Shown in pieces: positions 2,948-39,795 of a stretch of DNA of 46,694 bases. A model generated the notes under the pieces. That model was not told the DNA's origin, did not search any database, and saw nothing but the letters and a program-made list of their open reading frames with translations. Position numbers and translations under genes: made by a program. Location of the stretch: assembly GCA_018818345.1 (NCBI GenBank), contig JAHISI010000016.1, forward strand, positions 1 through 46,694. The letters run 5' to 3'. Every line of letters begins with the position of its first letter. Position 1 is the stretch's first letter. Origin of the DNA: Patescibacteria group bacterium. GTDB lineage: Bacteria > Patescibacteriota > Dojkabacteria > SC72.

Positions 2948-4351
2948 ATGTATCTAATTAAACATATTGCCCCTATGGTTATTGGAGCTACACACAACGG
3001 TTACATCGCCCCAAAAGGCTGGAAACCTAAGAATCCTGATGAGAATTACATCATTACATATCTCGACATTGAGCTTGCGAATGGCATTGGCATGGAGAAA
3101 TTTGAGGATGTGGTGGCAGCTTGTGCTGCAGAAAGTTCGACCGGTACATGGACAGATGTATATTCTGGAAGAGATTCTGGTGTAAAGATGGCAGAGAAGC
3201 TTAAGGCTGTAGCATTTGATCTAGAACCAGAGACTAAAACATTCAAGATAGCGTACAAGAAGGAACTCTTCGAATTAGACAATATGTCAGGAATATTGGC
3301 AGGAGTGGTAGGGAATATCGATGGAATGAAGATGCTTAAGGCATTCCGATGCTTAGATATTCGTTTTCCTAAAGATATTATTCAATCATTTCAAGGTCCG
3401 CAGTTTGGAATTGATGGGATGAGAGAGCTTTTACATGTTGAAGAAGGCCCATTGCTTTGTACTGTTCCTAAACCAAAAGTAGGACGTACAGCCAAGGAAC
3501 AGGCAAAGTTGGCAGAGATACTTTTTAGTGCTGCAAATGCTCAATATCATGGTATTAAGGACGACGAGAATCTAACAAGTCTGAAATTTAATACCTTTGA
3601 TGACAGGTGTGAGTTGATACATAAGGTAGTGAGAGAGGTAGAAAGAAAGACTGGACAAAGAAAGTTCTATCTATGTAATGTAACGCACTCAAATCTGGAT
3701 GTGATGATTCAAAGAGCAGACAAGATCAAAGCTCAAGGGGGTAGATGGATGATGATGGATATTGTTACTACTGGATTTAGCGCAATCCAGACTATGAGAA
3801 TGCATAACCCGGGATTGGCAATACATGCGCATCGAGCGATGCATAGCCTTTTTGACAGAGAATCGGGACCGGGAGTGTATGACAAGGGCGAAATCAAGGA
3901 TTTCTCTATGTCTATGATCGTGACTGCCAAGATAATGAGAATGTTAGGTGTAGATTCACTTCATGGTGGAGCTCCAAATACTAAGATGGAGAACTACGGT
4001 GAACCTAAGCTCATTAGAGATGCGTTGCAGTTGGATATTACTCCTGCGTCTAGCATGACCTTGGGACAGAACTGGTATGGGATGAAACCCGTATGGCATG
4101 TGGCTTCAGGTGGTTTACACCCAGGTACTATCCCTGAGGTCTTACATCAACTTGGAGAAGACATAATCATCCAGACTGGTGGTGGAGTTCTTGGACATCC
4201 ATGGGGCATAGAGGCGGGTGTAGAGGCCGTAATTCAAGCAAAGGATGTGGCATTAGGCAGAGGAAACATGGAGCAATGGATTATCGAACATCCAGATACT
4301 GCATTAGCTAAAGCTGCGCATCATTGGGGATTTGGTCCTAAGATCGTTTAA
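2948..4351 (+). CDS. rbcL: RuBisCO large subunit, form III-like (or II/III)
   Basis: 467-aa ORF retaining RuBisCO active-site signatures: STGTWTDV, KPKVGR, GIKDDENL (carbamylated Lys context), HAHRAMH, VASGGLHPG, GGGVLGHPWG. The start could be a later Met (2975). Confidence 0.9.
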   Translation: MYLIKHIAPMVIGATHNGYIAPKGWKPKNPDENYIITYLDIELANGIGMEKFEDVVAACAAESSTGTWTDVYSGRDSGVKMAEKLKAVAFDLEPETKTFKIAYKKELFELDNMSGILAGVVGNIDGMKMLKAFRCLDIRFPKDIIQSFQGPQFGIDGMRELLHVEEGPLLCTVPKPKVGRTAKEQAKLAEILFSAANAQYHGIKDDENLTSLKFNTFDDRCELIHKVVREVERKTGQRKFYLCNVTHSNLDVMIQRADKIKAQGGRWMMMDIVTTGFSAIQTMRMHNPGLAIHAHRAMHSLFDRESGPGVYDKGEIKDFSMSMIVTAKIMRMLGVDSLHGGAPNTKMENYGEPKLIRDALQLDITPASSMTLGQNWYGMKPVWHVASGGLHPGTIPEVLHQLGEDIIIQTGGGVLGHPWGIEAGVEAVIQAKDVALGRGNMEQWIIEHPDTALAKAAHHWGFGPKIV

Positions 4352-10862: not shown

Positions 10863-11864
10863 ATGGAAGTAAAGAAAAGAATTTTAACGGGGGACAGACC
10901 TACAGGACAGTTGCACATAGGCCACTATTTTGGGTCTTTACAAAGCAGAGCGAAATTACAAGATGAATATGAGGAGTATATTGAGATAGCAAATATCCAA
11001 GCTTTGACAGATAATTTTGATAACCCGGGTAAGGTTAGAGAAAATATCGAAGAGCTTCTTTGTGATTACTATGCAGCGGGGATTGATTTTGAAAAGGCAA
11101 CAATTTTCATTCAGAGTGAAGTTCCTGCTATCCATGAGATTTTTATATATCTTGCTAACTTCGCTACAGTTCAACAGATACAGCATAATCCTACAATTAA
11201 AACGGAGATGGCTCAAAAAGGAATGGAAGTTTCTACTCCTTTGGGTTTTTTCATCTATCCTATACACCAGGCTGCAGATATATTGTGTGTTAATGCAGAC
11301 TTAGTGCCCGTAGGGAAGGATCAAGCTCCAATGATTGAGGATACGAGGGTTCTTGCTAGAAAATTTAACAATACGTACAAGACAAATCTTTTACATCAAC
11401 CACAAGCACTTTTTGGTGTTGAGGCAAATGTTCCAGGTATTGATGGAAATGCAAAGATGGGAAAGAGTTTAAATAATGGAATATATCTTGCAGATAGCGA
11501 AGAGGAATTAAGAAGGAAAGTATTTAAGGTATACACAGATCCTGCAAGAATCCATGCTACAGATCCAGGTAAGATCGAGGGGAATGTTGCGTTTACATAT
11601 ATGGATCTATTTGCAACTGATCTTGATGAGGTAGAGGCTATGAAAGAAAAGTATAGAAAAGGAGAAATCAAGGATGTAGAGGTTAAAGAAAGACTATTTG
11701 AGATTATGAATGCATATCTCACACCAATAAGAGAGAGAAGAAGAGAAGCAGAAGGTATGAAAGATGAGTTAATGCAGAAAGCGTTAAAAGGTAGTGAGAA
11801 GGTTTCTGGCATAGCAAGAGATATTGCTGATCAGATGAAAGAAGCGATGAAATTGAAGTTTTAA
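10863..11864 (+). CDS. trpS: Tryptophanyl-tRNA synthetase
   Basis: 333-aa class I aaRS with a HIGH motif (GQLHIGHY) and a KMSKS motif (KMGKS). The size and overall pattern are those of TrpRS. Confidence 0.95.
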   Translation: MEVKKRILTGDRPTGQLHIGHYFGSLQSRAKLQDEYEEYIEIANIQALTDNFDNPGKVRENIEELLCDYYAAGIDFEKATIFIQSEVPAIHEIFIYLANFATVQQIQHNPTIKTEMAQKGMEVSTPLGFFIYPIHQAADILCVNADLVPVGKDQAPMIEDTRVLARKFNNTYKTNLLHQPQALFGVEANVPGIDGNAKMGKSLNNGIYLADSEEELRRKVFKVYTDPARIHATDPGKIEGNVAFTYMDLFATDLDEVEAMKEKYRKGEIKDVEVKERLFEIMNAYLTPIRERRREAEGMKDELMQKALKGSEKVSGIARDIADQMKEAMKLKF

Positions 11865-11903
11865 GTGATAATAGATAACTTGTAGTAGTTGGAGCTAATT
11901 CAT

Positions 11904-12923
11904 ATGTTTGTAAAGAAATTAGGTATAGACCTAGGAACAGCTAACTCAGTTGTATTTGTACAAGGGGAGGGTATTGTCTTAACTGAACCAACAGTAGTAG
12001 CTATAGATGTTAACAACTTCACTGTCATAGCAGTTGGACTAGAAGCAAAGGAAATGATTGGTAAAACTCCAGACAATATTGTTGCCAAAAGACCTCTACG
12101 AAATGGAGTTATAGCAGATTCCCGAGTCACGGAAGCTTTACTAAGATATTTCTTTGATAAAGCATTGGGTAAGAGTAGATTTTTCAAACCAGATGTAGTC
12201 ATTAGTGTCCCTGCAGGTATTACTTCGGTAGAAGAAAGAGCAGTACTGAAAGCTGCTAATGCTGTTGGTGCTAGGAATGTCACATTGCTTCCAGAACCAT
12301 TGTTAGCTGCATTAGGGGCTGAAATGCCAATACAGACATCTTCTGGGAACATGATTATAAATATGGGTGGTGGTACTACCGAAGTCGCCGTTATATCCCT
12401 CGATGGAGTAGTGGAATATGAATCACTAAGAGTTGCAGGTGACGCTATAAATGAAGCCATAATCTCATATATGCGTAAAAAGAAAGGTCTTTTAATTGGA
12501 GAACAAACGGCAGAGAAGATAAAGATTAAGATAGGTTCGGCTCTAGAAGTTAAAGATCCAAGAGAAATGGAAGTAAGAGGAAGGGACGTTGGTGCTGGTA
12601 TGCCTAAATCTGTCGTAGTTAATTCAAATGATATCGCCAAGGCTGTTGAATGGCCATTAAGAAGTATCATTAAGAGCGTACAAGCAGTATTAGAAAAGAC
12701 GCCTCCTGAGCTCTCCGCGGACATCATAGACCGTGGTATGGTTATGAGTGGTGGAACAGCAATGCTCAGAAATCTAGACAAGCTATTCTCTCGTGCTACT
12801 GGAGTGCCAGCTCATGTTGCCGATGATCCATTGTTTTGTGTAGTAAAGGGTACTGGTATTGCCTTAGATCTCATAGAAGAAGGCTCTAGGAAGTTCTCCT
12901 TTAATCGAGATTTTAGAAGATAG
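11904..12923 (+). CDS. mreB: Actin-like rod-shape protein MreB, paralogue 1 (not linked to mreCD)
   Basis: GIDLGTANS phosphate-1 motif, NMGGGTTEVAV, MSGGTAMLRNLD. The ATG at 11904 is preceded by GGAG; the track ORF starts at a TTG at 11889. Confidence 0.9.
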   Translation: MFVKKLGIDLGTANSVVFVQGEGIVLTEPTVVAIDVNNFTVIAVGLEAKEMIGKTPDNIVAKRPLRNGVIADSRVTEALLRYFFDKALGKSRFFKPDVVISVPAGITSVEERAVLKAANAVGARNVTLLPEPLLAALGAEMPIQTSSGNMIINMGGGTTEVAVISLDGVVEYESLRVAGDAINEAIISYMRKKKGLLIGEQTAEKIKIKIGSALEVKDPREMEVRGRDVGAGMPKSVVVNSNDIAKAVEWPLRSIIKSVQAVLEKTPPELSADIIDRGMVMSGGTAMLRNLDKLFSRATGVPAHVADDPLFCVVKGTGIALDLIEEGSRKFSFNRDFRR

Positions 12924-12956
12924 TTTTAATCTTCTTTAACATATATAATATATCCC

Positions 12957-14117
12957 ATGGAAATATTTAATAGAAAAAAGAAGACGTTAAAGCTTGATGA
13001 AGTCACAAAATTGCTTAGTGAATTAAGAATTCCTACAGCATTGGTTTTTACCCCAATAAACTTAGAGACGGAGAAGAAGAAATTTTTTAATAGCGATACA
13101 TACAATCCAGTTTTTGAGTATAGGATTGTTAAGAATAATAACAAAGAGATATTAAAAAAGCTTTCCAATGTAAAAGAGATCGTTGATGTTGATCCTCGTA
13201 TTTCTGATTTCTACCTTCAGTTGATTGATTCTAAGAAAGAGGCTAGTGACCTTATGCATTCCGTTGGAAATAATGAAGAGATTACGGATATTTCTGTACA
13301 TAGGTATGGTAAACCAAGTGACAAGCTTTTTAGAAATGCAGCTAGAGTACTTAGAGGTAAATTAGACAGTTACAATGTAATAGATGAGGATACAATAAAG
13401 AAGGGTGACATTCTCTACTACGATGATATTGTTAAGGTTTTCAATGTTGTATTCCAGGAGTTGGGTTTAGATGGCTGGACAGTGAATAAGTCTATCAATA
13501 TTGCTAAGAATGGTGTGAAGATTGGTGTAAAAAGAAAAGAGATTCTAGTTGATGAGAATATTGAGAGAACCAAATTCAAATTAAGGAAGACGTTGATACA
13601 TGAAGTTGGAACTCATGCTTTGAGAGCGCACAATGGTTTGATGTGTGGGTTTGATGCTTTTAGTAATGCGAATCTTCCTGAGTATTTAGATGTAGAAGAG
13701 GGTTTAGCTACATGGAATGAGAATAGTATGGGTTTGCTTACTGAGAAGTGGTTGAAGAACAAAGCTGCATTGGCATGGGCTATATATTTGGGCGAGGATC
13801 TTTCATTTAGAGAGCTTTACAATGTTCTTTTAGCGGTGTTACCTAAGTACTCTGCTTTTGACGTTACATATCGTGTAAAGAGAGGTTTGGGTGATACTCA
13901 TGATAGGGGGATATATTCTAAGGATGTTGCATATTTTAGAGGTTTTAGAAAAGTTAAGAAGAAATTGGAAGAGAATCCTAGGTTGTATAACCAATTGTAT
14001 GCTGGAAAGATTACATTTAAACAGTGTGAATGGGTTGAGGATGGGTTATTACCTATGCCTACTAATGTTCCTAACAAGGATAAATGGTTAGAGATATTTG
14101 AGAAAGCGGGGATATAG
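12957..14117 (+). CDS. DUF1704 / MATCAP-like metallocarboxypeptidase (QEGLA-motif family)
   Basis: 386-aa ORF with HEVGTH (13599-13616) followed about 27 aa later by EEGLA (13695-13709). This is the metal-binding/QEGLA arrangement I associate with the DUF1704 family, which includes the eukaryotic tubulin detyrosinase MATCAP. It starts 33 nt after mreB paralogue 1. Confidence 0.7.
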   Translation: MEIFNRKKKTLKLDEVTKLLSELRIPTALVFTPINLETEKKKFFNSDTYNPVFEYRIVKNNNKEILKKLSNVKEIVDVDPRISDFYLQLIDSKKEASDLMHSVGNNEEITDISVHRYGKPSDKLFRNAARVLRGKLDSYNVIDEDTIKKGDILYYDDIVKVFNVVFQELGLDGWTVNKSINIAKNGVKIGVKRKEILVDENIERTKFKLRKTLIHEVGTHALRAHNGLMCGFDAFSNANLPEYLDVEEGLATWNENSMGLLTEKWLKNKAALAWAIYLGEDLSFRELYNVLLAVLPKYSAFDVTYRVKRGLGDTHDRGIYSKDVAYFRGFRKVKKKLEENPRLYNQLYAGKITFKQCEWVEDGLLPMPTNVPNKDKWLEIFEKAGI

Positions 14118-14168
14118 TCAGATCGAGTTTTTGTGCTATCATATATACATAATATTGTCCAAATAAAT

Positions 14169-15668
14169 ATGGATACAAATCCTTCATTAGAGAAAGAAAA
14201 TGCACAGTCTAAAGTCCCAATAAATCCTTATTTTCAACCCTCACAAAAAGATTTGGTAGCCACACCAGAAGTAACGGAAGAAGTAACCCCCGAAATAGTA
14301 GATTTACCCTCCGTCGAAACCGTAAGAATGCCAACATTGGATGATAAGTCTGAAGAACCATCGGCTTTAATTAATAGTTTGCCCAATATTGCTTTGGATC
14401 AAAAAAATAATGCATCATCTAATGTTAAAGATCCCAAAGATCTAGATTTAAAAATGTTGGGTTCAGATGAGCATGGATTGTACATTAAGATCCCAACGGA
14501 GATAAATGCAGAAGTAAGAGATGCTCAAAATGAATTCATTCCTGTTTTTATGGATGTACATAAAAAGTATGCCAATTATCCAGAATGGGAATATATGAAT
14601 GCACAAAATCCATTTGTTTTTGCTCCTGCAACCATTCGAATTATGTCTAATCAGTTAATACCCCAATTACTTAAGGAAACAACAACACTTTTTTCTAATG
14701 GAGTAGAGGAAAATACTGAGAGATCTATGCATTGGAAGGAATCAAATATTGAAGGGATATTAAATAAGCTACTTGCCTATGAATCATATCGATTAGAAAG
14801 AATCATGGCTCCAAGAGCAAGAGATCATATGAAAGAGGCCTTTCCTGGAGAAGAGGTAATCAAGGTTAAAGAGCTATGTACTGGAGCAGGTATGACTACT
14901 GCATTAATGTATGAAGCTTTAAAGGAAACAGGTAAGAAGGTAGAATTTCATTCTGCAGATAATTCACTTCAATCTGTTATTTGTGCCGCTACGTTATTAA
15001 CCTTACGAGGTATTCCAACAAGGATTGTGTTGGAAAGTGGTCAAAAAGAAAAGAACTTTGAGGGTGTAACAATATATTTTGAAACAGCTCAAGAATCTAT
15101 ACAAAAGAATCAAGATAATTACCACTTTGTATTTTCAGATAATGGAATAAATTATTTTGATGAGAAGCCTCACTTTGAGGTTGTAGATGAGATGGTAAAA
15201 AGAGTTAAACCAGGAGGACTTTTTCAAGATTGTACCTTGGATCCTGGAATGCAGGTTGATCTTTCAACAGTAAGCATGCTAGGGACAATCCTCTTCACAA
15301 AGAAGGAAAACTTTAAGAAAAAAGTTAGGTTAGGAGATGCGGAATATAGTATTAAGGAAAAAGATGGGATTTCTTTTATTGAGCAACTCTTTTCTCCTTC
15401 ATCTACTATGCAATACGAACTTTTGGCTGATGTTGGTAAAAAATTAGGAGTGAAAGCTTTCGCAGAATACTTGGGCGGAGCAAAGAAAGCGGGTGCAATA
15501 ACTAAAAAGTTAGCACCAAAAATCGCTCAAGATTTAAGAAAAACAGGAATGAAGATTTTAGAACTTACAGGCCTTAAGGGTTCATATTATCCAACATACG
15601 AAGATCGAAAAACTAGTTTAACAAGATTTTTTGAATTAAAACTGCCAAAGAACAATGATATGGGATAA
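14169..15668 (+). CDS. Hypothetical protein with acidic disordered N-terminus and class I SAM-methyltransferase-like C-terminal half
   Basis: Motif I-like VKELCTGAGM, an acidic loop (FHSADNS) and a post-III-like VKPGGLF. The ATG at 14169 is preferred over the GTG at 14133. The fold assignment is tentative. Confidence 0.5.
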   Translation: MDTNPSLEKENAQSKVPINPYFQPSQKDLVATPEVTEEVTPEIVDLPSVETVRMPTLDDKSEEPSALINSLPNIALDQKNNASSNVKDPKDLDLKMLGSDEHGLYIKIPTEINAEVRDAQNEFIPVFMDVHKKYANYPEWEYMNAQNPFVFAPATIRIMSNQLIPQLLKETTTLFSNGVEENTERSMHWKESNIEGILNKLLAYESYRLERIMAPRARDHMKEAFPGEEVIKVKELCTGAGMTTALMYEALKETGKKVEFHSADNSLQSVICAATLLTLRGIPTRIVLESGQKEKNFEGVTIYFETAQESIQKNQDNYHFVFSDNGINYFDEKPHFEVVDEMVKRVKPGGLFQDCTLDPGMQVDLSTVSMLGTILFTKKENFKKKVRLGDAEYSIKEKDGISFIEQLFSPSSTMQYELLADVGKKLGVKAFAEYLGGAKKAGAITKKLAPKIAQDLRKTGMKILELTGLKGSYYPTYEDRKTSLTRFFELKLPKNNDMG

Positions 15669-17946
15669 TACGTTATATTTGTTTGTTGTAATACTGGGAT
15701 TCACCTCCTTAATAGGGCCTTTAGTTACCTTCATAAAGGAGCCAAAAAATAAAGCATATTTCTTCTTAGGAGTCTTAGGAATAATCGCGGGTCCAGTCTG
15801 GGCTTTTTCTACAGTATCTTTTTTACTAACTGATACATTAAGTACAGCCAAACTTTGGGCAGACATTATATATCTTGCATCAATATCAATCGGACTTTTC
15901 CATTATATTTTCTCCACATACTATCTTCGTAGAAAGAAGATCAATTTGCTGTTTGCATTATTTGTAGTAGGTGGTTTTATATTTCTGCTTTATCAGATAT
16001 TTTTTACTAATAACTTTATTGAAAGAATTGTATTAGAGGGAAATAACTATATTGTGGTAGGGAAGGCATATATGGTCTGGATGGCTTGGTTAACAATCGT
16101 TTTCGCAGTTAATGTATATAAAACTTTAAGAGGATACAAAGAATTGTCATTTATTGAAAAAGAGCAGCAGAAATATTTAATTATTGGGAATGTATTAACT
16201 GTTGTTGGTTCTTTTCCGGCTAATATTATAGCTCCATATTTTGGTATTTATGAGTATATTTGGTTTGGTCCTGTTGTTTTTTCAATTGCAAACCTCATAA
16301 TATCGTATGGTCTAACGCAGACTAGATTCCAGCGATTGGGGGCAGTGATACGTGGGATTCTAAGAAGTCTTTCACTATATGTTATTCCCGCAGTGATATT
16401 TGTTGCTTCTCTGGAATTTCTTTTTCCACTGATTAAGCAGCTTTCAATTTCCAAGTTGTTATTTTATATCATTGCATTTTTGTTTGCCCTGGCTTTTAAA
16501 TTAATTATAGATTCGGTTGCAAATATTTTTCTCTCGGAAAAACAGATTTTAAGGAATAAAGGGGAGGGGTTTATCAAATTGTTGAACTTTGAACAAGAGC
16601 TTTCTGATATATGTAGTAAGACATTGAACTATATATGTCAAAATACCTCTGCAGATAAAGCTCAGATTTATCTTTATGATTCTGTAAATACAAAATCATA
16701 TTACTTTACTAATGGGGATTGGAAGATTGAAAATCTAGATAAGATTTTCACAGAGATACCTGTATATTGGAATAAAAAGACAACTGCGGAGGGAAAGTTT
16801 GAGGCTTTATCAAGATCTGAACTTGAATATTTGAGTAATAAGGATGCCATAGAGTATCGAGAATATTCTAATTTATTGTACTTATTAGAGTTAGCGAAGA
16901 TCCAGATAGTTTACCCAATAGTTTCAGGGAATGAATTGATAGGGGTGCTTTTCATACAGGATTTAGCTAATAACCAGATGTATAAAATAGATGAGCTTAA
17001 TCTTTGGGATCGTATATATAGTCAATTTCATATTTCTGTTAACAAAGCGTTACTATATCAGCAGCTTCAATCGTTGAACTCAACGCTCCAACAAAAAGTA
17101 GATATTCAAACTAAGGAGCTGCAAATAAAGATTTCTGAGCTACAAGAGGCTCGTAAAAAAGAAAACGATATGATCGATATCATGGGTCATGAACTTAGAA
17201 CACCTGCTACCATAGTTAAACTCAATGCTCAATTACTAGAGAAGTTTACAGGGGATATAGATAGCGATCCTGAAGCATACAAGAGATATGTAGATAGGAT
17301 AAAGATGGCAGTGGAGAATGAGATAAAACTTATTAATACATTGCTAAGTAGTGCTAAATTAGAAGGAAATAAGATAGTCATAGATCCTGAAGAGGTTGAT
17401 CTTAAGGAAGAAGTAGATATGGCTATACATGGCAATGAGAAGGATGCGAATGAAAAGAATCTTCCAATAATTAATAATATTAAATCAGATACTCCTCATG
17501 TATATGCAGACAAGGCTAGGGTGGTGGAGATATTAAATAACCTCATAAGTAATGCTGTTAAATATACGGAGAGTGGTAGCGTAACCATTGAGGATAGATA
17601 TGATGATAATTGGGTGGAGGTATCAATCATAGATACAGGGCATGGTATTAGTGCGGAGGATCTTAAAAAGCTTGGCCAGAAGTTCTACAGAGCTGGGAAT
17701 TACATAGATTCTAATGTTAAGGTTGGTGACAAGATGGAGATAGTAAGGCCTGGAGGTACGGGTTTAGGGCTCTATGTGACCTTCAACCTCATACGTAAGA
17801 TGGGTGGTGATGTTCGTGTAGAGAGTGAGGTAGGTAAGGGTAGTAAATTTATATTTATATTACCTAGATACAAAGCACAAGCCATTCATGATCATGATGG
17901 TGAGAGTAATAATATGTTTGAGAAGCTAGGACTTAAAACGCAGTAA
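15655..17946 (+). CDS. Multi-TM sensor histidine kinase (orphan)
   Basis: 763-aa ORF with about 7-8 N-terminal TM helices and a central GAF-like region. H-box MGHELRTP, N-box NLISNAVKYT, G1 DTGHGI, G2 GGTGLGL. The start overlaps the upstream stop by 14 nt. No response regulator lies in the window. Confidence 0.85.
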   Translation: MIWDNTLYLFVVILGFTSLIGPLVTFIKEPKNKAYFFLGVLGIIAGPVWAFSTVSFLLTDTLSTAKLWADIIYLASISIGLFHYIFSTYYLRRKKINLLFALFVVGGFIFLLYQIFFTNNFIERIVLEGNNYIVVGKAYMVWMAWLTIVFAVNVYKTLRGYKELSFIEKEQQKYLIIGNVLTVVGSFPANIIAPYFGIYEYIWFGPVVFSIANLIISYGLTQTRFQRLGAVIRGILRSLSLYVIPAVIFVASLEFLFPLIKQLSISKLLFYIIAFLFALAFKLIIDSVANIFLSEKQILRNKGEGFIKLLNFEQELSDICSKTLNYICQNTSADKAQIYLYDSVNTKSYYFTNGDWKIENLDKIFTEIPVYWNKKTTAEGKFEALSRSELEYLSNKDAIEYREYSNLLYLLELAKIQIVYPIVSGNELIGVLFIQDLANNQMYKIDELNLWDRIYSQFHISVNKALLYQQLQSLNSTLQQKVDIQTKELQIKISELQEARKKENDMIDIMGHELRTPATIVKLNAQLLEKFTGDIDSDPEAYKRYVDRIKMAVENEIKLINTLLSSAKLEGNKIVIDPEEVDLKEEVDMAIHGNEKDANEKNLPIINNIKSDTPHVYADKARVVEILNNLISNAVKYTESGSVTIEDRYDDNWVEVSIIDTGHGISAEDLKKLGQKFYRAGNYIDSNVKVGDKMEIVRPGGTGLGLYVTFNLIRKMGGDVRVESEVGKGSKFIFILPRYKAQAIHDHDGESNNMFEKLGLKTQ

Positions 17947-18886
17947 TAATAGCTTCTGCTATATTTACAGGTTCTCCCTCAATCTTAGTCTCATATGCCT
18001 TATATCCAGGATGTAAACTAATCTCTTGTATACATGGCTTCCCATTCATATACATAAAGTCTACAGCCATGAAATCAGCTTCTAGTACAGCTGTCATCCT
18101 CTCAGCAATCTCAGTAATCTCCTCATTAGGTTGGTTACACATCTCATATGTACTAGTTCTTTTATTAACAGTCATAAATCCTTCTCCTGCAATTCTCTTC
18201 CATCCACCAATAACCTTACCTAGTTTAACAAATATTCTGTAATCTTCACCTGCATCAGAAAATTCTTGTATAAAGAAATGAGAAAGATCCTGTCCATCAA
18301 GATTCTCTTGTTTGTAATCCTCATCTTTCTCTAATTTAAACACGTTCTTTTTTATCTTTTCCTTCCCATCAATCATCTCAGTTCTATTAGCACCAGTATA
18401 TTCTTTAATAATTAGGGGATAGTCCTTTAACATATCTCTATCCTTTAAATACTCACCATTAGTTTGGAAATATGTATTAAAGTAGGGGAGGTTATTTTTT
18501 GAACACAGCATTGCGAAGGCTATCTTATTGTAATATGGAAGATTCTTGATTGCTTTGGAATTTTGAATGATCACTTTTTTTTCTGGGTTGTCTCTATTAT
18601 ATTGATCAACGTAATCTATCATGAATCTCTTATATTGATACTCACGTTCATCGTCTAATGAATGACCCCGTAAAATCACGTTGCTGTACTCCGTTATGTC
18701 GTGCCCAGCTACCTTGATAACCGTGGAACCATTATGAAACAAGAATTCTATCTCATCGTTATATGCAAAATCGCAAGGTATATCCTTCTTTTTTAATTCT
18801 TCTACTAATCTTGCAGATCCAGTAGGTATTTCGCCCATGGTAGCTACTTGCACACGTTGTCTTTTATCTATAATGAGGTATTTCAT
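17933..18886 (-). CDS. RimK-like ATP-grasp amidoligase
   Basis: 317-aa ORF with ATP-grasp C-terminal signatures (EDYRIFVKLGKVIGGWKRI, MAVDFMYMNGKPCIQEISLHPG). Last gene of the minus-strand operon; its stop overlaps the kinase gene's 3' end (17933-17946). Confidence 0.7.
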   Translation of the reverse strand: MKYLIIDKRQRVQVATMGEIPTGSARLVEELKKKDIPCDFAYNDEIEFLFHNGSTVIKVAGHDITEYSNVILRGHSLDDEREYQYKRFMIDYVDQYNRDNPEKKVIIQNSKAIKNLPYYNKIAFAMLCSKNNLPYFNTYFQTNGEYLKDRDMLKDYPLIIKEYTGANRTEMIDGKEKIKKNVFKLEKDEDYKQENLDGQDLSHFFIQEFSDAGEDYRIFVKLGKVIGGWKRIAGEGFMTVNKRTSTYEMCNQPNEEITEIAERMTAVLEADFMAVDFMYMNGKPCIQEISLHPGYKAYETKIEGEPVNIAEAIITAF

Positions 18887-18887
18887 A

Positions 18888-20579
18888 TTAGAATTTTTTA
18901 ATTTTAGATATTAAACCTTTGAATTGATACTTTCTAATTGCTTTTACAAAATCTTTGTCTTCAAAGTACTTCTTTTCGACCATTAATAGATCGATTCTAT
19001 TAAATCCTAGTCCTGTTTCTCTTATCTCATCTGTATTTCGATGTTGTATGATCATTGCATCTAAAGAAGCGTTTACTTTAAGGCCTTCTATTGCCTTCCA
19101 TTTCTCTAGGCCTTTATTTATATCTAACCCATTGATTCTTATGCCTTCATCTTTGTATTCTCCGATAACGGCATCTTGTTTGAGGTACGATCCAAAGAGT
19201 GATTTCTTACGAAGTAGGGTAGGAATGTCTTGTGTACTATTACCTACAATTACTATCTGCTTTGTATTATTGCCTTTAACTAGCGCTTTTACATATTTCT
19301 CATATACTTCTTCTCTAGATTCTCCGATAACTGGATACACATTGAGATATGCTTCGGGCATGATATTGATTTCAATTATTCCGCCATTCTCTTGTGTAAG
19401 AGGTTTTGATATGTCCTGACAAAGGATATCGACACCTAACGTAAATGCATGGATAGAGGAAGCTATACTTTCTACGATTGCTTTAATCTCAGGTCCAACC
19501 TTTTCTGTAAAGTCTTCTGTGATACCACCTTGGCTCATACTTGCTACCTTTCTAACATAGATTTTCTGTTCTTTCTTAGGAATAGATTCTAATGTAAGTT
19601 TTTGGTCTTTGAGATATGAGAGTAGGGGTTCATCGATTATTATTGGTTTAAGTGTATGGGTTGGATTGGTTACATCCCTTCGAGGGTCAGTATTGGTTAC
19701 TTCTATTAATTCTTTTATTGTACTCTTGCCATTTCCTACAATGAAAGCAGGGATTCTCTTCGTGGTTATTTCTAGATGACCATCTATAACCAAGAGCCTG
19801 TAATCTTCCCCTTTGATTTGTTCTTGCATCATTATCTTGTTCTGCCATTCTTTCCCGATGTGTTTGCTACATGCCTTTTGTGCAAATTTGAATGCGTCCT
19901 TAGCTTCTTCTATAGTTTTGATACTTGTTACTACTCCATGTCCGCCAACTAAGCCAACAGGCTTAATGACTACGGGTTTTTCATATTGGCTCCAAATCTC
20001 TTCGAGTTGAGTAATATTATCTACTACTTGCCATTTAGGAATAGGGAGGCCCATACGCTCAATCATTAAATTACTTGCCCACTTATCTTTTTGTATTGTT
20101 TGAGCAATCTTCGAATCTTTACTAGAGGACACGGAATACAGGATCTCGGAGTGTTTTCCTACACCAATTGTGTAATGTCTATTGTATCCTTTCGAATATG
20201 TTACTCTCTGGTCTTGAACTAAAGTAGGCGTTGTTTCAAGTCCTAGCTTGTTTGCAATGTGTAGGATGGGGATGGTAACCATGGAGAGAAGTCTCTGTTT
20301 TATGACCTCTTCTAATGTATATTTTTTTGCTTCTTCATAGCTCATCTTTCCATTATCTAGAGCTACAATTATCTCTCCAAGTTCTCTCCAGAGAGATGTC
20401 ATTTGAGAACGTATGCTTAGGATATCATTTTCAAACTTATATTCTCTAATGAACAAAGGATGAAATCCCTTGAGCATTTCTAAATATTTTACAATCGCAT
20501 CTGATTTATGGACGTTGAGTTTAATAACTGAGAGATCTGATTCTAGATTGAGACCTTGTAGAACTTGCACGTTACTCAT
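18888..20579 (-). CDS. Cyanophycin-synthetase-like protein: CphA N-domain + ATP-grasp (G) domain + truncated degenerate Mur-ligase remnant
   Basis: 563 aa. PVVIKP, EDYRLLVIDG..RIPAFIVGNGKSTIKELIEVTNTDPRR and QDISKPL..GGIIEIN align closely with my recollection of CphA1 (PVVIKP, DHRVLVVNG..RIPAHVTGDGTSTITELIDKTNQDPNRG, SDISKPL..VIVEVN). Where CphA has the P-loop AVTGTNGKTTT, this protein has IVGNSTQD, and it ends about 115 aa later. Confidence 0.8.
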   Translation of the reverse strand: MSNVQVLQGLNLESDLSVIKLNVHKSDAIVKYLEMLKGFHPLFIREYKFENDILSIRSQMTSLWRELGEIIVALDNGKMSYEEAKKYTLEEVIKQRLLSMVTIPILHIANKLGLETTPTLVQDQRVTYSKGYNRHYTIGVGKHSEILYSVSSSKDSKIAQTIQKDKWASNLMIERMGLPIPKWQVVDNITQLEEIWSQYEKPVVIKPVGLVGGHGVVTSIKTIEEAKDAFKFAQKACSKHIGKEWQNKIMMQEQIKGEDYRLLVIDGHLEITTKRIPAFIVGNGKSTIKELIEVTNTDPRRDVTNPTHTLKPIIIDEPLLSYLKDQKLTLESIPKKEQKIYVRKVASMSQGGITEDFTEKVGPEIKAIVESIASSIHAFTLGVDILCQDISKPLTQENGGIIEINIMPEAYLNVYPVIGESREEVYEKYVKALVKGNNTKQIVIVGNSTQDIPTLLRKKSLFGSYLKQDAVIGEYKDEGIRINGLDINKGLEKWKAIEGLKVNASLDAMIIQHRNTDEIRETGLGFNRIDLLMVEKKYFEDKDFVKAIRKYQFKGLISKIKKF

Positions 20580-20589
20580 AATGGTAGAC

Positions 20590-21579
20590 TTATAATTTAT
20601 TTGTGTACTTATCTCTAATATATTCCATAATAGGGATGGCGACCTTCACCTTTTCACCCTTGTCAGCTTTGTAATGTAATCTTAATCCAGGGTTGTAGTT
20701 AATTTCATTAATTCCACACTTACCTGGTTTTGTTATATCTTCTGCAATGATATCTACACCCCCAAATTCTAAATCAAGAGCCTTAACGGCCTTCACAGCG
20801 AGCTCTTTGTAGTATGGATCCACGATGGATGCGCACTCTTCTGTAGTGCCTCCAGTGGTGAGGTTACAATTGTATCTGAGAGTTATAACTTGGCCTTCGT
20901 CAGGAATGGTATCTAATGTAAGGTCGGCATTTTTTAATCGTATTTCCACTTCGGAATCTATTGGAATTGGCTTGAGAATGAGTAGACTACGCTCTTTATT
21001 TGAAATATCAATTAATTCTCTTATAGTGTTCTTACTATTACCAATAACCACAGGAGCCTTCCTCCAGACTATTCCAACAACGTTTTCACCAACTACTAGG
21101 AAGCGATAGTTCTCTCCTTTTATGAATTCTTCTCCTAGTACTTTTACTTCTCCTTTTGATCTGTCTTTTTCTAAAGCTTCGTTAAAAGAAGAAATCACTT
21201 GCTCTTCAGTTTCTGGGAGTAGGGTAATGCCTTTTCCTCCGAGTTGTTGTGAGGGTTTTATTACAATGTCTTTGTACTTATTGAAGAACTTTATAGCATC
21301 GATAGCGCTACTCAAGCCTTCTTGCTTTGGGACATCTACACCATATGAACTTAATACCATGTTAGTTAAGTTTTTACGTTTTGAAATGGTAGCACTTGGG
21401 GAGGAGGTTAGTGGGGTGACTGTGTTTATAATGAACCAATGCTTATCTCCAACCTCAAACTTAGCAATTAGGCTTCTCACAACTATTGAATACTTGATAC
21501 TTAAGATATCTGCAGCTTCTACATAGTATGCTAAATGCACATTACCAGCCTCTTTCAAATATTCTTCGTATGTTTTCAT
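20590..21579 (-). CDS. Stand-alone cyanophycin-synthetase G-domain-like ATP-grasp ligase
   Basis: 329 aa. IVIKPSQQLGGKGI, ENYRFLVVGE, VVIGNSKNTIRELID, NLTTGGT and GGVDIIAEDITKP..INEINYNPGLRLH parallel the CphA ATP-grasp domain. The ATG overlaps the upstream stop (TAATG). Confidence 0.75.
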   Translation of the reverse strand: MKTYEEYLKEAGNVHLAYYVEAADILSIKYSIVVRSLIAKFEVGDKHWFIINTVTPLTSSPSATISKRKNLTNMVLSSYGVDVPKQEGLSSAIDAIKFFNKYKDIVIKPSQQLGGKGITLLPETEEQVISSFNEALEKDRSKGEVKVLGEEFIKGENYRFLVVGENVVGIVWRKAPVVIGNSKNTIRELIDISNKERSLLILKPIPIDSEVEIRLKNADLTLDTIPDEGQVITLRYNCNLTTGGTTEECASIVDPYYKELAVKAVKALDLEFGGVDIIAEDITKPGKCGINEINYNPGLRLHYKADKGEKVKVAIPIMEYIRDKYTNKL

Positions 21580-23036
21580 TATTTAAATGTTTTACTCGTA
21601 TCAATTAAGTAATCTCTTAAGTCATTTCTACCTAAGGTGACAGAATGTGTACTGTCTTCGGTTACAATCATCTCGAGGTCTCGAATCTCTCCTGAAATCT
21701 TTACTTTAACAATGATAACAGGTCTGATTACAATTTGCCCATCTTCAAAGATTTTTGCCAAACGTATAATATATTCGTCACTTGTACTATTCTTGCTGTA
21801 TTCATCGATATAGTCTTGAGCATCTGTAAAAGTATCAAAAGTTTTAGGACATTTGAGATAATCAAACTGTCTCATTGTTTCAAAATATCCCATTCGTGAT
21901 ACATAGCTTCTGGATATACGAGAAGTTATAGCTCCTGTATCTACAAATGCAGTGGTAAGTTCTCTGTCTTTGTTTTCATTCTTACTACCTTCTTTGTATG
22001 ATTTGTAGTAAAGGGTTATCTTCTCATTAATATTTATAACCTTTCTTCCACTAATAGCTTCAATGCTGTCTTCGACTTCACCGCCAAAGAGGTTTTTTGC
22101 TACTCTAATTCCATGCTTAATACTTTTTACAGAAAGCCCTTTGATTTTTTCTAATCTCCATTTTAATCCGGCTTGGTTGGCTACTTGTATACCAAGACCA
22201 GGTCTAGCATTTAGCTCAAATACAATTGGACCTTTGTCTGCATCTAATGCTATATCTACACCTACATATCCAAGCTTGCTTGCTTTTTGACATCTTACAG
22301 CTATATCCAATATCTTGTCCCAATCAGGTATCTGAACGCCTGAAAGTTTTTTGTTAATTTTTAGATCTTGAGTCGAATCGATCATCTCATATGTATCACT
22401 TAAGAACGATTTATTGTTCATGTGCATAGAGTAGGTGGTTATACCTGTTCCAATGTCTATACCGGTACATATCGCTCCTGAGTGGAGATTGGCGGTACCA
22501 TTAGATCTTCTAGTAGGTATTCTAATCATGGCCATAATCGGTACTAGGTTGAAGCAGATGATTCTTAAATCGGGTACGCCTTTGTAGGAGTATTGTTTTA
22601 GGAATGAATCTGTTCGGACTCTTTCTTCGATGATTGCGATGTCACTTCTTTCGCCCATTGAGAATCTTCCTTCAAGGATATTTTCAATGTGTAAAGTGAG
22701 ATCTTTCTTTGATAGTACCTCTCCGCCTGGTCTAATCCATGCTAATTCTCCTTTTTTACGACCATAGAGGACGAGGATTCCATTCCCACCAGTTCCTTGA
22801 TTAGGTTTAATTACGAAGCTTTTTGGTAATGACTCCCAATCTAAGAAGGCTAATTGCTTTCTGTTTTTTATTAACTTGTATACTTCAGAGGTTTGTATTC
22901 CTTCTCTAGCCAATAGCTTCTTTGTAGCTATCTTGTTGTCTGCTAGTGCCTTAGCTTTTGGATGGTTGTATGGACGAACATATTCCTGATTTCGTCTATT
23001 GAGCCCTAATACTTCGTTCATTCTACTTCTGAACAT
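21579..23036 (-). CDS. Alpha-L-glutamate-ligase-like ATP-grasp fused to C-terminal retropepsin-like (DTGA, DUF785/RimB-like) domain
   Basis: 485 aa. The N-terminus (GLNRRNQEYVRPYNHPKAKALADNKIATKKLL), VIKPNQGTGGNGI and VFELNARPGL resemble the RimK-related alpha-L-glutamate ligase-like family. The C-terminal region of about 160 aa carries FVDTGA (21930-21941) and a terminal LGRNDL..YLID, like DUF785 peptidases. Confidence 0.75.
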   Translation of the reverse strand: MFRSRMNEVLGLNRRNQEYVRPYNHPKAKALADNKIATKKLLAREGIQTSEVYKLIKNRKQLAFLDWESLPKSFVIKPNQGTGGNGILVLYGRKKGELAWIRPGGEVLSKKDLTLHIENILEGRFSMGERSDIAIIEERVRTDSFLKQYSYKGVPDLRIICFNLVPIMAMIRIPTRRSNGTANLHSGAICTGIDIGTGITTYSMHMNNKSFLSDTYEMIDSTQDLKINKKLSGVQIPDWDKILDIAVRCQKASKLGYVGVDIALDADKGPIVFELNARPGLGIQVANQAGLKWRLEKIKGLSVKSIKHGIRVAKNLFGGEVEDSIEAISGRKVININEKITLYYKSYKEGSKNENKDRELTTAFVDTGAITSRISRSYVSRMGYFETMRQFDYLKCPKTFDTFTDAQDYIDEYSKNSTSDEYIIRLAKIFEDGQIVIRPVIIVKVKISGEIRDLEMIVTEDSTHSVTLGRNDLRDYLIDTSKTFK

Positions 23037-23691
23037 TGTCTTTGTTTTGGCTAATTGATTTAAATCTGAACAGATCCTTCACTCTTAATCCTGCAAACTG
23101 GCCAATGAAGATGTTAAATACAATTAGAAGAGGAACAATCCAGAGGTTGTTTATGAAATACTCAGATACTGCATCTCTGGTTATGACAAACCATCCTAAT
23201 GCAGCTATGATTACGGTACTTGAAAGAATCATAACTGAGGACTTGAAGGATTTTTTAACATATTGCTTTATGAAGAAGTCTGAAAGTGCGGCAATTGAAA
23301 TTACTGCCAATCCGGAGATATTTGTCATGTTTTCTAAACCTAGACCAAATCTTTCTACAACAATGAAGAATACCACTAACATTATGGCTAGCAAACAATA
23401 GTTTACAGCTATCCTGGCGATGTAGTGCATACGTACTTTTCTAAGGATAGTGTATGAGAGTAGGGTAGTTAGTATGACGATTAGGGTTATGGCTAATCCA
23501 TATTTAAGTCCAGTATATGAATATGCAATTGCCAAGATTATTGGCGCATATATTCCATATGTTTTGGACCCTATGACGTATCTAGCTATACTTACAATGG
23601 TAGCTACGATCATTACAGCGAGTAACAATTCAAGTACCTGTTGAGGAACGCCAGTCGTAATCATCCATTGTGTAAAAGGTGTATAGGTCAT
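23023..23691 (-). CDS. Stand-alone 7-TM membrane protein (7TM module of the type usually fused to an inactive transglutaminase)
   Basis: 222 aa with seven hydrophobic helices countable by eye and a basic C-terminal tail. First gene of the operon, overlapping the next gene by 14 nt. Family assignment is from memory of the ATP-grasp-associated 7TM family and is tentative. No obvious SD. Confidence 0.6.
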   Translation of the reverse strand: MTYTPFTQWMITTGVPQQVLELLLAVMIVATIVSIARYVIGSKTYGIYAPIILAIAYSYTGLKYGLAITLIVILTTLLSYTILRKVRMHYIARIAVNYCLLAIMLVVFFIVVERFGLGLENMTNISGLAVISIAALSDFFIKQYVKKSFKSSVMILSSTVIIAALGWFVITRDAVSEYFINNLWIVPLLIVFNIFIGQFAGLRVKDLFRFKSISQNKDNVQK

Positions 23692-32388: not shown

Positions 32389-33444
32389 ATGAAAATTTTT
32401 GATTCCGTTTGGGAACTCTTAACATATGATATCGGAATTGATCTCGGTACTGCAAATACCTTGGTATATATGCGTAACCATGGCATTGTAGTTTCAGAAC
32501 CATCAGTTGTAGCAATTGATAAAAGAACCAAAACAGTACTCGCTGTGGGTAAAGAAGCTAGACAGATGATTGGTAGAACTCCTGCGAATATAGCAGCGGT
32601 TAAACCACTTAAGGATGGTGTAATTTCAGACTTCGATACCACCCAAGCTATGATCCATCATTTCATACACAGAGCTCATTCATACTTTGGAAATTCATTC
32701 AAACTTCCTAGACCAAGAGTAATTGTTGGAGTACCTTCTTCCGTAACTGAAGTAGAACGTCAAGCCGTTATAGATGCTGTAAAAACAGCTGGAGCGAGAG
32801 AAGTATTCATAGTTGAAGAATCAATGGCAGCTGCAATTGGTGCGGGATTACCCGTTGAAGATGCATCTGGAAGTATGATTGTAGATATAGGAGGTGGTAC
32901 TTCAGACATTGCAGTATTCTCACTTGGGGATATTGTTGTAGACAACACATTAAGAATAGCTGGAGATGAAATGGATCAAGATATCGTTAACTATGTTCGA
33001 GAAAAATACAACGTACTAATAGGGGAGCGAAGTGCTGAAGATGTAAAAATTGCCATAGGTTCTGCCATGCCACTCAAAAAAGAAACCAAGATGTCGGTAC
33101 AAGGAAGAGATCTCTTAACAGGACTTCCAAAGACAGTAGAGCTAAGTAGCGTAGAGGTTAGAGAAGCCATTATGACTTCCATATATCAGATAACCGAAGC
33201 AGTTAAAGATGCCATTGAAGATACCCCTCCAGAATTACTAAAAGATTTGTTAACCTCAGGATTACATTTAACCGGTGGAGGTGCATTGATAAAAGGATTG
33301 GATACATTCTGGACAGAAGAATTAAATCTACCTGTAAAGATAGTCGATGATCCACTTTCTGCAGTAGCCAGAGGAACAGCTTTGATGTTAGATCATATAG
33401 AGCTACTTGAAAGAGTCCAGAGATCTTGGAATGAGTTAGTTTAA
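32389..33444 (+). CDS. mreB: Rod-shape protein MreB, paralogue 2 (canonical, linked to mreCD-mrdA)
   Basis: 351 aa with GIDLGTANT, DIGGGTSDIAV and LTGGGALIKGLD. It is followed directly by mreC. Confidence 0.95.
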   Translation: MKIFDSVWELLTYDIGIDLGTANTLVYMRNHGIVVSEPSVVAIDKRTKTVLAVGKEARQMIGRTPANIAAVKPLKDGVISDFDTTQAMIHHFIHRAHSYFGNSFKLPRPRVIVGVPSSVTEVERQAVIDAVKTAGAREVFIVEESMAAAIGAGLPVEDASGSMIVDIGGGTSDIAVFSLGDIVVDNTLRIAGDEMDQDIVNYVREKYNVLIGERSAEDVKIAIGSAMPLKKETKMSVQGRDLLTGLPKTVELSSVEVREAIMTSIYQITEAVKDAIEDTPPELLKDLLTSGLHLTGGGALIKGLDTFWTEELNLPVKIVDDPLSAVARGTALMLDHIELLERVQRSWNELV

Positions 33445-33454
33445 TATATCTACT

Positions 33455-34273
33455 ATGAAAAATAGTCCTTCCAAAGTAGAAAATAATAGCATAGCAATAT
33501 ATCTTTCATTGGTATTGGCAACTGCTTTTTTACTAATAGATGGATTTGGTAATTTGGCAGGATTAAGGAACGGAATATCGTTTACATTTGAGCCAATATC
33601 ATTTCAAGCAAATAATGCAGGAACAAAAGTAGGAGAGTATTTTCAGACATTTGTGAATCTCGGAGCGTTTAGAAAGGAATTTAATGATTTGAAAATAAAA
33701 TCATACGAGAATGAGACTCAATATTCCAACTATCTCATCCTTAAGAATGAAAACGAAGCATTGAAGAAGCAGATAGCATTGGGAAATAAGGATTCAAAGT
33801 ATGTTTTGTCTAATGTTTTACGAGACGATAACGTTGATATATTGCTCATAGATCAGGGAAGTGAATCAGGAATTAGGCAAGGGGATGTGGTTTCAGTAGG
33901 AAACGTCTTTGTAGGTATAGTCTCGAGTGTTGATTTAAAGGGTAGCACGGTAAGACTTCCTTCTAACGAAAGCTCACATCTTGAAGTCGTTGTTTTGAAG
34001 TCTGGAAGCGATAATGTGACAAAAGCCAATATCCTTAGCGATGCAGTAGTAAGCGGCTCTGCCGAGGGTATTAAGATTGAGAATATCTCGATGAACTCTA
34101 GTGTTGCCAATGGAGATATTGTTCATATTAACGATTCAAAAGTAGGTGGATATTTTGCTTTAGGGTATATTGTTGGACTTTCAAGTAATCCTGCAAGTAC
34201 ATATAAAACAGCATTTGTTTCTCCAATTCTCGACTATGATAATCTAATGCAAGTGTTTGTTAAGGTAGAATAA
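33455..34273 (+). CDS. mreC: Rod shape-determining protein MreC
   Basis: 272 aa with an N-terminal TM helix and a coiled-coil segment (..LKNENEALKKQIA..). Beta-barrel-type segments follow (GDVVSVGNVFVGIVSSV, GDIVHIND). Position is between mreB and mreD. Confidence 0.8.
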   Translation: MKNSPSKVENNSIAIYLSLVLATAFLLIDGFGNLAGLRNGISFTFEPISFQANNAGTKVGEYFQTFVNLGAFRKEFNDLKIKSYENETQYSNYLILKNENEALKKQIALGNKDSKYVLSNVLRDDNVDILLIDQGSESGIRQGDVVSVGNVFVGIVSSVDLKGSTVRLPSNESSHLEVVVLKSGSDNVTKANILSDAVVSGSAEGIKIENISMNSSVANGDIVHINDSKVGGYFALGYIVGLSSNPASTYKTAFVSPILDYDNLMQVFVKVE

Positions 34274-34290
34274 TTTGAATATATATTAAA

Positions 34291-34785
34291 ATGTCGATAT
34301 TGTACGTGCTTTTAACTACATTCGGAGTCATCTTTTTGGAAAGCTTTTTAGTAGCCTTGGCTAATTTGAGGTTTCTTTTCCTGTTGAACGTGTCTCTTTT
34401 TAACAAAATTAATTGGAAGCACTTACTGTCTTTTTCTCTTTTGAGCTCCTTAATCCTTGATGTCATATATCACTATGTGCTTGGAACTAACCTGTTAATG
34501 GTTGCCGTTCCTTTACTCATAATGCTTTTAATATCTCTCATCGTACCATTAGAAAATAGTTTGCCAGGTTACAGTGTTAAGTTTGTCTGTATCTTTCTTT
34601 ACTACCTCTTCGTTTCATTTGTCCCTAACCTCATTTTAACTGGACAGGGAACAGTCATAACGGGTGTGATGCTAGGGGGAATGGTATTGAAGGCAGCTAT
34701 ATCTGTGCTCTTCTGTGTAGTGTTTGATGTCGTATGGAGTAGGCTAAGAAAGAAGGAAGAAGGAACGAAATTAAGATCTTTGTAG
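34291..34785 (+). CDS. mreD: Rod shape-determining protein MreD (polytopic membrane protein)
   Basis: 164 aa with about 5 TM helices. The assignment is mainly by its conserved position between mreC and mrdA. Confidence 0.6.
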   Translation: MSILYVLLTTFGVIFLESFLVALANLRFLFLLNVSLFNKINWKHLLSFSLLSSLILDVIYHYVLGTNLLMVAVPLLIMLLISLIVPLENSLPGYSVKFVCIFLYYLFVSFVPNLILTGQGTVITGVMLGGMVLKAAISVLFCVVFDVVWSRLRKKEEGTKLRSL

Positions 34786-34793
34786 GGAATATA

Positions 34794-39767: not shown

Positions 39768-39795
39768 TTTCATATATATCCTCTATGATATATAT

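Follow-up and report, generated by a model that had tools for sequence, protein, structure and literature searches.

A MATCAP/DUF1704-family protein of Dojkabacteria, probable trimming partner of an RloBC/RimK-like amino-acid ligase system

Known activities in the MATCAP family (PF08014, formerly DUF1704) are those of eukaryotic tubulin-tail carboxypeptidases only, and the prokaryotic relatives are uncharacterised. The human proteins TMCP1 (MATCAP, KIAA0895L) and TMCP2 (KIAA0895) are metallocarboxypeptidases that remove C-terminal tyrosine and glutamate and shorten the polyglutamate chains made by the ATP-grasp TTLL ligases, and the Tetrahymena MATCAP homologue is likewise a deglutamylase (PMC10499314). 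The active site of TMCP1 combines an HExxxH motif with an ‘EEG motif’ that supplies the third metal-binding residue (PMC10499314). In bacteria, RimB trims the polyglutamate tails made by RimK and also binds and regulates this ligase (PMC12239564). In Pseudomonas aeruginosa, mutants without the RloA peptidases are rescued from their defects by deletion of either rloB, which encodes a seven-transmembrane (7TM) protein, or rloC, which encodes an ATP-grasp enzyme (PMC12239564), implying that RloB and RloC generate a product that must be cleaved. The rlo mutants of this species show cell-shape and envelope phenotypes (PMC12239564). Here we analyse a stretch of 46,694 nucleotides (nt), referred to as the window, from contig JAHISI010000016.1 of assembly GCA_018818345.1 (forward strand; Patescibacteriota, Dojkabacteria, SC72), whose nearest database record, at 99% identity, is from candidate division WS6 (Dojkabacteria) bacterium GW2011_GWC2_36_7. 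The window encodes a MATCAP-like protein of 386 amino acids (aa), immediately downstream of an additional mreB gene, here called mreB paralogue 1 (mreB1), and in the neighbourhood of a cluster of ATP-grasp ligase genes.

By sequence, the 386-aa protein is a genuine member of the MATCAP/DUF1704 family in which all predicted metal-binding and catalytic residues are conserved. Its match to PF08014 scores 98.9 bits (E = 3.9e-28; profile positions 2-338 of 365), well over the gathering cutoff of 27 bits, while that to TIGR02421 (QEGLA) spans model positions 14-352 of 368 and reaches 118.2 bits, under the equivalog cutoff of 338.65. Human MATCAP/KIAA0895L was the only protein matched by phmmer among the PDB sequences (7z5g, E = 5.8e-11; also 7z6s). 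In this alignment, HEVGTH of the window protein falls on human HEIGTH (H280, E281 and H285) and EEGLA on EEGLA, the second glutamate of which is human E316; in chain 7z6s_C, from the entry for microtubule-bound human MATCAP, position 281 is a glutamine, which is an inactivating mutation. Across 26 MATCAP-family sequences with identities down to 25%, the residues H215, E216, H220, R223, E248, G249, L250, K308, G310, K322 and Y326 are invariant. A preliminary description of this DNA had recognised HEVGTH and EEGLA as the DUF1704 zinc site, and both the PF08014 score and the correspondence with the human residues bear this out. As the profile match is significant and the metal ligands are conserved, family membership is solid, and we infer a metal-dependent carboxypeptidase activity by analogy with the human enzymes.

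The fold agrees with this assignment. An AlphaFold2 model computed from the 26-sequence alignment is confident (predicted local distance difference test, pLDDT, 94.1; predicted template modelling score, pTM, 0.90), and a Foldseek search against the PDB returned human MATCAP (7z5g and 7z6s) as the sole strong matches, with E values of 1.4e-12 to 7.5e-12, a probability of 1.00 and template modelling scores of 0.57-0.68 (0.59/0.67 for the top matches at E = 1.4e-12); the next match was an M32 carboxypeptidase with an E value of 0.027. We found 430 homologues, the best 120 of which are 64-94% identical and come from sources naming Candidatus Dojkabacteria. NCBI labels its relatives ‘DUF1704 domain-containing’ or ‘tyrosine/phenylalanine carboxypeptidase domain-containing protein’; the protein is a new PF08014 member whose relatives are already annotated as belonging to this family. 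Because its N-terminus has no evident signal peptide or transmembrane segment, it is probably cytoplasmic.

Family membership, the conserved catalytic residues, the fold, the gene neighbourhood and the gene fusions described below were all observed directly, and from them we consider it probable that the 386-aa protein works in the cytoplasm as a metallocarboxypeptidase, trimming what an RloBC/RimK-like amino-acid ligase system produces. We propose the following hypothetical scheme, in which (i) the functional partner of the protein would be the neighbouring module, consisting of an ATPgrasp_ST (RloC-like) ligase, three RimK-like or cyanophycin-synthetase-like ligases and an RloB-like 7TM protein; (ii) the ATP-grasp enzymes would join amino acids, probably acidic ones, into an alpha-linked chain; (iii) this chain would exist either in free form, as an oligo- or poly-amino acid, or as a C-terminal tail of some protein; and (iv) the MATCAP-like enzyme would cleave residues off the C-terminal end, thereby setting the length of the chain or recycling it. 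Trimming of a ligase-made chain is proposed because of the analogy with TMCP1/2, RloABC and RimB and because of the ligase fusions. The resemblance of the ligases to RimK and to cyanophycin synthetase (CphA), together with the basic residues conserved in the peptidase, suggests glutamate or aspartate as the chain residues.

Gene fusions link peptidase and ligase physically. An exhaustive search over 1.84 billion cluster representatives (E up to 0.001) yielded 1,633 clusters of prokaryotic MATCAP relatives at 50% identity. Among the best 150 cluster representatives, seven of the ten longest proteins carry an N-terminal ATPgrasp_ST domain and a C-terminal MATCAP domain, five of them full-length and two N-terminally cut. 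One such fusion, P0152, shows 37% identity to the ATPgrasp_ST protein of the window in its N-terminal half (E = 6e-71) and 29% identity to the window MATCAP protein in the other half (E = 5e-37); its operon also encodes a PKD-7TM_transglut protein and two ATP-grasps of the RimK-like kind. Both P0152 and a further fusion, P0230, have the active-site motifs HEIETH and EEGLA. A narrower MATCAP alignment used as the seed for related loci returned Dojkabacteria loci only, and a second alignment of distant MATCAP relatives was used to obtain 80 metagenome loci outside this class. ATPgrasp_ST and MATCAP share one uninterrupted frame in 25 of these 80 loci, with a 7TM gene detected upstream in 21 of the 25, and in two loci a RimK-like gene lies directly 3’ of the MATCAP gene. 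In a 34%-identical relative, the ligase/7TM cluster adjoins the MATCAP gene, mreB is absent and the other flanks are different. The link between MATCAP and ATP-grasp genes is therefore recurrent and ancient, and it takes three physical forms: fusion, co-directional pair and convergent cluster.

The window itself shows the third of these forms (Table 1). The pair of an RloC/TIGR02291-type ATP-grasp ligase and an RloB-type 7TM protein is present, as indicated by PF14397 and PF14402. The 222-aa 7TM protein matches the RloB model NF052267 at positions 311-505 only and lacks the transglutaminase-like domain. The 485-aa ligase probably carries a retropepsin-like (RloA/RimB-type) domain at its C-terminus (residues ~335-485), in which the motifs DTG(A) and LGRN..YLID are conserved and D365 and T366 are invariant; its matches to aspartic-protease families are weak and below cutoffs (PF13975, E = 7.9e-4; PF05618, E = 0.082), and a profile of this domain matched the ‘putative ATP-dependent zinc protease domain’ 9g59 in the PDB with an E value of 0.01. 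At the position of DTGA in the window ligase, the fusions P0152 and P0230 have IDPH or IDPQ. The preliminary description had noted a RimK-related, alpha-L-glutamate-ligase-like gene at this place, with which the PF14397 and TIGR02291 scores agree. That such a gene lies nearby stands; the weight of the ligase link was underestimated, since a five-gene module abuts the MATCAP gene in most relatives and ATPgrasp_ST is fused to MATCAP elsewhere. A proteobacterial pairing of QEGLA with TIGR02291 genes had also been put forward, and this was not confirmed: among ten relatives at 28-30% identity none reaches the TIGR02421 cutoff, and of the two best, one lies on a short contig and the other is followed by a 319-aa protein unlike the ligase.

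Table 1. Positions of the features discussed, numbered along the window, with profile scores and predicted roles.
Feature	Position	Strand	Details
mreB paralogue 1 (mreB1), immediately upstream of MATCAP gene	11889..12923	+	PF06723 435 bits; NF010539 442 bits (cutoff 293)
AT-rich spacer between mreB1 and MATCAP gene	12924..12956	+	33 nt
MATCAP/DUF1704-family predicted metallocarboxypeptidase gene	12957..14117	+	ATG start, 386 aa; PF08014
HEVGTH, HExxxH motif (H215, E216, H220)	13599..13616	+	residues 215-220; predicted two metal ligands and catalytic Glu; invariant in 26-sequence alignment
EEGLA motif	13695..13709	+	residues 247-251; E248 predicted third metal ligand; E248, G249 and L250 invariant in 26 sequences
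Insertion between MATCAP gene and ligase cluster	14133..17946	+	511-aa protein and 7TM-receptor histidine kinase (HisKA_7TM, HisKA, HATPase_c)
RimK-like ATP-grasp ligase, first gene of convergent cluster	17933..18886	-	317 aa; PF08443 34 bits; TIGR00768 52 bits, below cutoff
ATP-grasp like cyanophycin synthetase G domain	18888..20579	-	563 aa; NF010623 246 bits, CphA positions 185-568, below cutoff
ATP-grasp like cyanophycin synthetase G domain	20590..21579	-	329 aa; NF010623 203 bits, CphA positions 166-471, below cutoff
ATPgrasp_ST / alpha-L-glutamate-ligase-like (RloC-like) protein	21579..23036	-	485 aa; PF14397 215 bits; TIGR02291 285.9 bits, just under cutoff (314.2)
7TM membrane protein, RloB type	23023..23691	-	222 aa; PF14402 7TM_transglut 62 bits (cutoff 25)

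The arrangement within the class was followed by mapping the window proteins onto 83 Dojkabacteria loci with MATCAP protein identities of 50-99%. A whole block of 20 kilobases (kb), running from uvrA through the PEGA-domain gene, trpS, mreB1, the MATCAP gene and the ligase cluster to rplL and rplJ, is syntenic in the class. The distance from the MATCAP stop codon to the end of the convergent RimK-like gene, measured in 73 loci, has a median of 12 nt and is at most 60 nt in 53 of them; wherever the downstream sequence suffices, the ligase and 7TM genes follow in the same order, with few exceptions. The 3.8-kb gap seen in the window is therefore a lineage-specific insertion. The gene pair that fills it is shared with no locus other than L006 and L008, the closest relatives, and other lineages have other inserts at this junction, namely an HD-domain gene or a radical-SAM/SPASM pair. 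The inserted 511-aa protein (14133-15668, + strand) has no Pfam or NCBIfam match, and it is unusually divergent, with 72% identity in L006 against 89-99% for the neighbouring proteins there.

On the other side of the MATCAP gene, MreB1 is a true MreB by its profile scores, a second paralogue apart from the canonical mreB-mreC-(mreD)-PBP2 row; it is 42% identical to the MreB of that row (32389-33444). Since its homologues are 339 aa long, translation probably begins at the ATG at 11904. The gap between mreB1 and the MATCAP gene, measured in 81 loci, has a median of 22 nt and is at most 200 nt in 78, and the two genes remain neighbours at MATCAP identities as low as 50%, and in a relative with 41% identity as well. 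About 1.2-1.5 kb of extra sequence separates the two genes in the divergent loci L078, L081 and L083 and in the 47%-identical L086, and in the two loci in which it was examined, this stretch is filled by the gene of a Wzy_C (O-antigen ligase/polymerase-like) membrane protein (L083, 8692-9948; L086, 2429-3607). In three of these four loci, the ligase cluster lies 2-8 nt from the MATCAP gene. The preliminary description reported a 33-nt gap after mreB1 without a terminator and took this to suggest co-transcription. The former was confirmed by a consensus scan that listed no terminator-like site on the + strand between 10700 and 18100, a range that includes the spacer; the latter is plausible, given the lack of such a site and tight spacing kept throughout the class. 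A TATAAT hexamer is present inside the spacer (12944-12949) without a matching -35 element, and the scan listed no promoter-like site there. The MATCAP gene is thus probably co-transcribed with (trpS-)mreB1 in Dojkabacteria. The trpS gene upstream (10863-11864, + strand) occurs in two very different forms: that of L006 (6018-6989) is 39% identical although its MreB1 and MATCAP proteins are 99% identical, that of L008 is 92% identical at a MATCAP identity of 88%, and in about a third of the loci trpS is absent from the position beside mreB1. This looks like in-place gene replacement.

Several observations weigh against the proposal that the protein trims a ligase product. In the window, the ligase cluster is 3.8 kb away from the MATCAP gene and on the opposite strand. 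Within the class, the MATCAP-ligase gap exceeds 200 nt in 19 of 73 loci, compared with an interruption between mreB1 and the MATCAP gene in three of 81 loci plus L086; this difference is tempered by the fact that a convergent gene end is a permissive insertion site. Outside the class, 53 of the 80 loci have no ATP-grasp gene in the available flanks, many of these contigs being short, and one long contig has neither mreB nor ATP-grasp genes within 8 kb of the MATCAP gene, so that the ligase link is not universal for the MATCAP family. The nature of the ligase product is itself derived from analogy, and the literature searched contained neither biochemical data on any prokaryotic MATCAP/DUF1704 member nor a functional study of DUF1704, QEGLA or ‘flavohemoglobin expression-modulating’ proteins. 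The occurrence of many family members alone on their contigs, and the small, strongly syntenic genomes of the candidate phyla radiation, would also be expected if the protein were a general cytoplasmic carboxypeptidase for peptide turnover without a dedicated partner, in which case both neighbourhoods would simply be inherited gene order. We regard such a housekeeping role as unlikely, given that ATPgrasp_ST fusions recur in many distinct loci, that the ligase cluster still adjoins the gene in the 34%-identical relative with its different other flanks, and that all three physical arrangements tie the gene to ATP-grasp genes. The dual behaviour of RimB, which regulates RimK by binding to it, and the fusions, which place both activities in one complex, could instead mean that the protein has no catalytic activity and serves the ligases as a scaffold or regulator. 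However, neither the metal ligands nor the catalytic glutamate varies within the family, even in P0152 and P0230, which leaves this idea with a very small probability; with all catalytic residues invariant, we reject a pseudoenzyme. The ribosomal proteins L10 and L7/L12 were considered as targets in view of the conserved proximity of rplJ and rplL, and were set aside, as the loci of the fused type have neither rplJ nor rplL nearby.

Another explanation starts from the actin homologue. The enzyme could process the C-terminus of the co-transcribed MreB1, to which the ligases might re-add residues, so that the locus would parallel, in a bacterium, the tyrosination/glutamylation cycle of tubulin. 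The close, co-directional adjacency in nearly all Dojkabacteria loci without an intervening terminator-like site, the status of MreB1 as an extra paralogue outside the mreBCD-PBP2 operon, the action of the eukaryotic family members on the tail of a cytoskeletal protein and the cell-shape defects of the P. aeruginosa rlo mutants all fit this idea. Yet adjacency by itself carries little weight, because the entire block around the two genes is syntenic in the class, and support for MreB1 as the substrate is limited to adjacency in this one class: mreB (at a threshold of at least 30% identity) was found near none of the 80 loci outside it, 25 of which have the ligase fusion. In the deep branches L083 and L086, moreover, the Wzy_C gene parts mreB1 from the MATCAP gene, and L078 and L081 have inserts of similar size. 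The C-termini of MreB1 proteins are also poor candidates. After a common GER.FSFN segment (12870-12923 in the window), they end in two to five variable residues, such as FRR (24 distinct sequences), SIT (13), GYN, SIS, ISS, VSY, MLE and others; none of these tails is acidic like that of tubulin, all being neutral or basic, and they are presumably no longer than the C-terminus of Escherichia coli MreB. We therefore consider processing of MreB1 very improbable, and the functional tie to a cytoskeletal gene that the preliminary description implied is not supported. Similarly improbable is that the ligase/MATCAP module was recruited in Dojkabacteria to the extra MreB paralogue, so that this actin homologue would carry a reversible C-terminal ‘code’ like the tubulin code. 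We read the co-transcription of mreB1 with the MATCAP gene as a class-specific operon arrangement that does not point to MreB1 as the substrate, and the position of the MATCAP gene beside that of an actin homologue probably reflects nothing more than inheritance of gene order. The shape and envelope phenotypes of the rlo mutants offer a benign reason why a system of this kind would sit among mreB, PEGA and Wzy_C genes.

The remaining genes of the window complete this setting. It opens with argS, an rlmN-like gene, a gene for RuBisCO, proS and, on the - strand, uvrA and the PEGA-domain gene. There follow a + strand run of trpS, mreB1, the MATCAP gene, the gene for the 511-aa protein and that for the 7TM histidine kinase, and a - strand run of the RimK-like ATP-grasp, the two CphA-G-domain-like ATP-grasps, the ATPgrasp_ST/TIGR02291-like ligase and the 7TM_transglut (RloB-type) protein. 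Beyond the ligase cluster lie rplL and rplJ and, later, the canonical mreB row (32389-36803). The RuBisCO large-subunit homologue (2948-4351, + strand) matches PF00016 with 194 bits, and its place next to proS is kept in relatives; RuBisCO of form II/III is known in bacteria of the candidate phyla radiation. Ribosomal protein S2 (41226-42356, + strand) is 376 aa long and has a C-terminal extension matching the RNA polymerase alpha C-terminal domain/HHH_5 (residues 314-376, E = 2.8e-13), an unusual fusion for rpsB. The open reading frames of topA (37632-39767) and of a radC-like gene (39559-40428), both on the + strand, overlap by about 200 nt, and the true start of radC is probably further downstream.

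In summary, our analysis leads to the prediction that prokaryotic MATCAP enzymes trim amino-acid chains made by ligases, following the same ligase-and-trimmer logic as TTL/TTLL and MATCAP on tubulin and RimK and RimB on ribosomal protein S6. A prokaryotic origin of the eukaryotic ligase/MATCAP pair is plausible. If the ‘code’ on MreB1 were true, it would suggest that the eukaryotic TTL/MATCAP pair descends from a prokaryotic pair that modifies the cytoskeleton. In the literature searched, we found no description of an mreB1-MATCAP operon spanning the class, of the module of four ligases or of how often ligase and peptidase are fused.

Compared with human MATCAP/TMCP1 (KIAA0895L) and TMCP2 (KIAA0895), which act as tubulin detyrosinases and deglutamylases, the window protein belongs to the same PF08014 family and shares the HExxxH and EEG(LA) site, the basic KRG...K residues and the fold. 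The substrates of the human carboxypeptidases are acidic C-terminal tails and chains produced by ATP-grasp ligases of the TTL/TTLL kind. However, the identity between human MATCAP and the window protein is only ~20%, and the N-terminal ~140 residues of human MATCAP have no counterpart: the alignment starts at human residue 142, where the window protein has only 29 preceding residues. This human N-terminal region reportedly takes part in microtubule binding. Because it has no counterpart here and tubulin is not expected in a Dojkabacteria host, the 386-aa protein is, judging by sequence, not a functional orthologue of the tubulin detyrosinase. The candidate partners differ as well, being RimK/RloC/CphA-like ligases in the window and members of the TTL family in human cells. 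The proteobacterial QEGLA proteins (TIGR02421) belong to the same superfamily, their model is matched over nearly its full length, and an alpha-L-glutamate-ligase-like gene is present in the neighbourhood; nevertheless, the window motif is EEGLA rather than QEGLA and the score is under the cutoff, so the protein is not an equivalog. A further comparison is with RloABC of P. aeruginosa and RimABK of Pseudomonas (PMC12239564). The window locus differs from them in having four ATP-grasp genes instead of one and, as its extra peptidase, a MATCAP-type metallocarboxypeptidase without a signal peptide, and its 7TM protein lacks the inactive transglutaminase domain of RloB. In common with these systems it has an RloC- or RimK-type ligase, a 7TM protein of the RloB type and a peptidase that presumably cleaves the ligase product, and weak matches suggest that an RloA/RimB-like retropepsin domain may also be present in the ATPgrasp_ST protein of the window.

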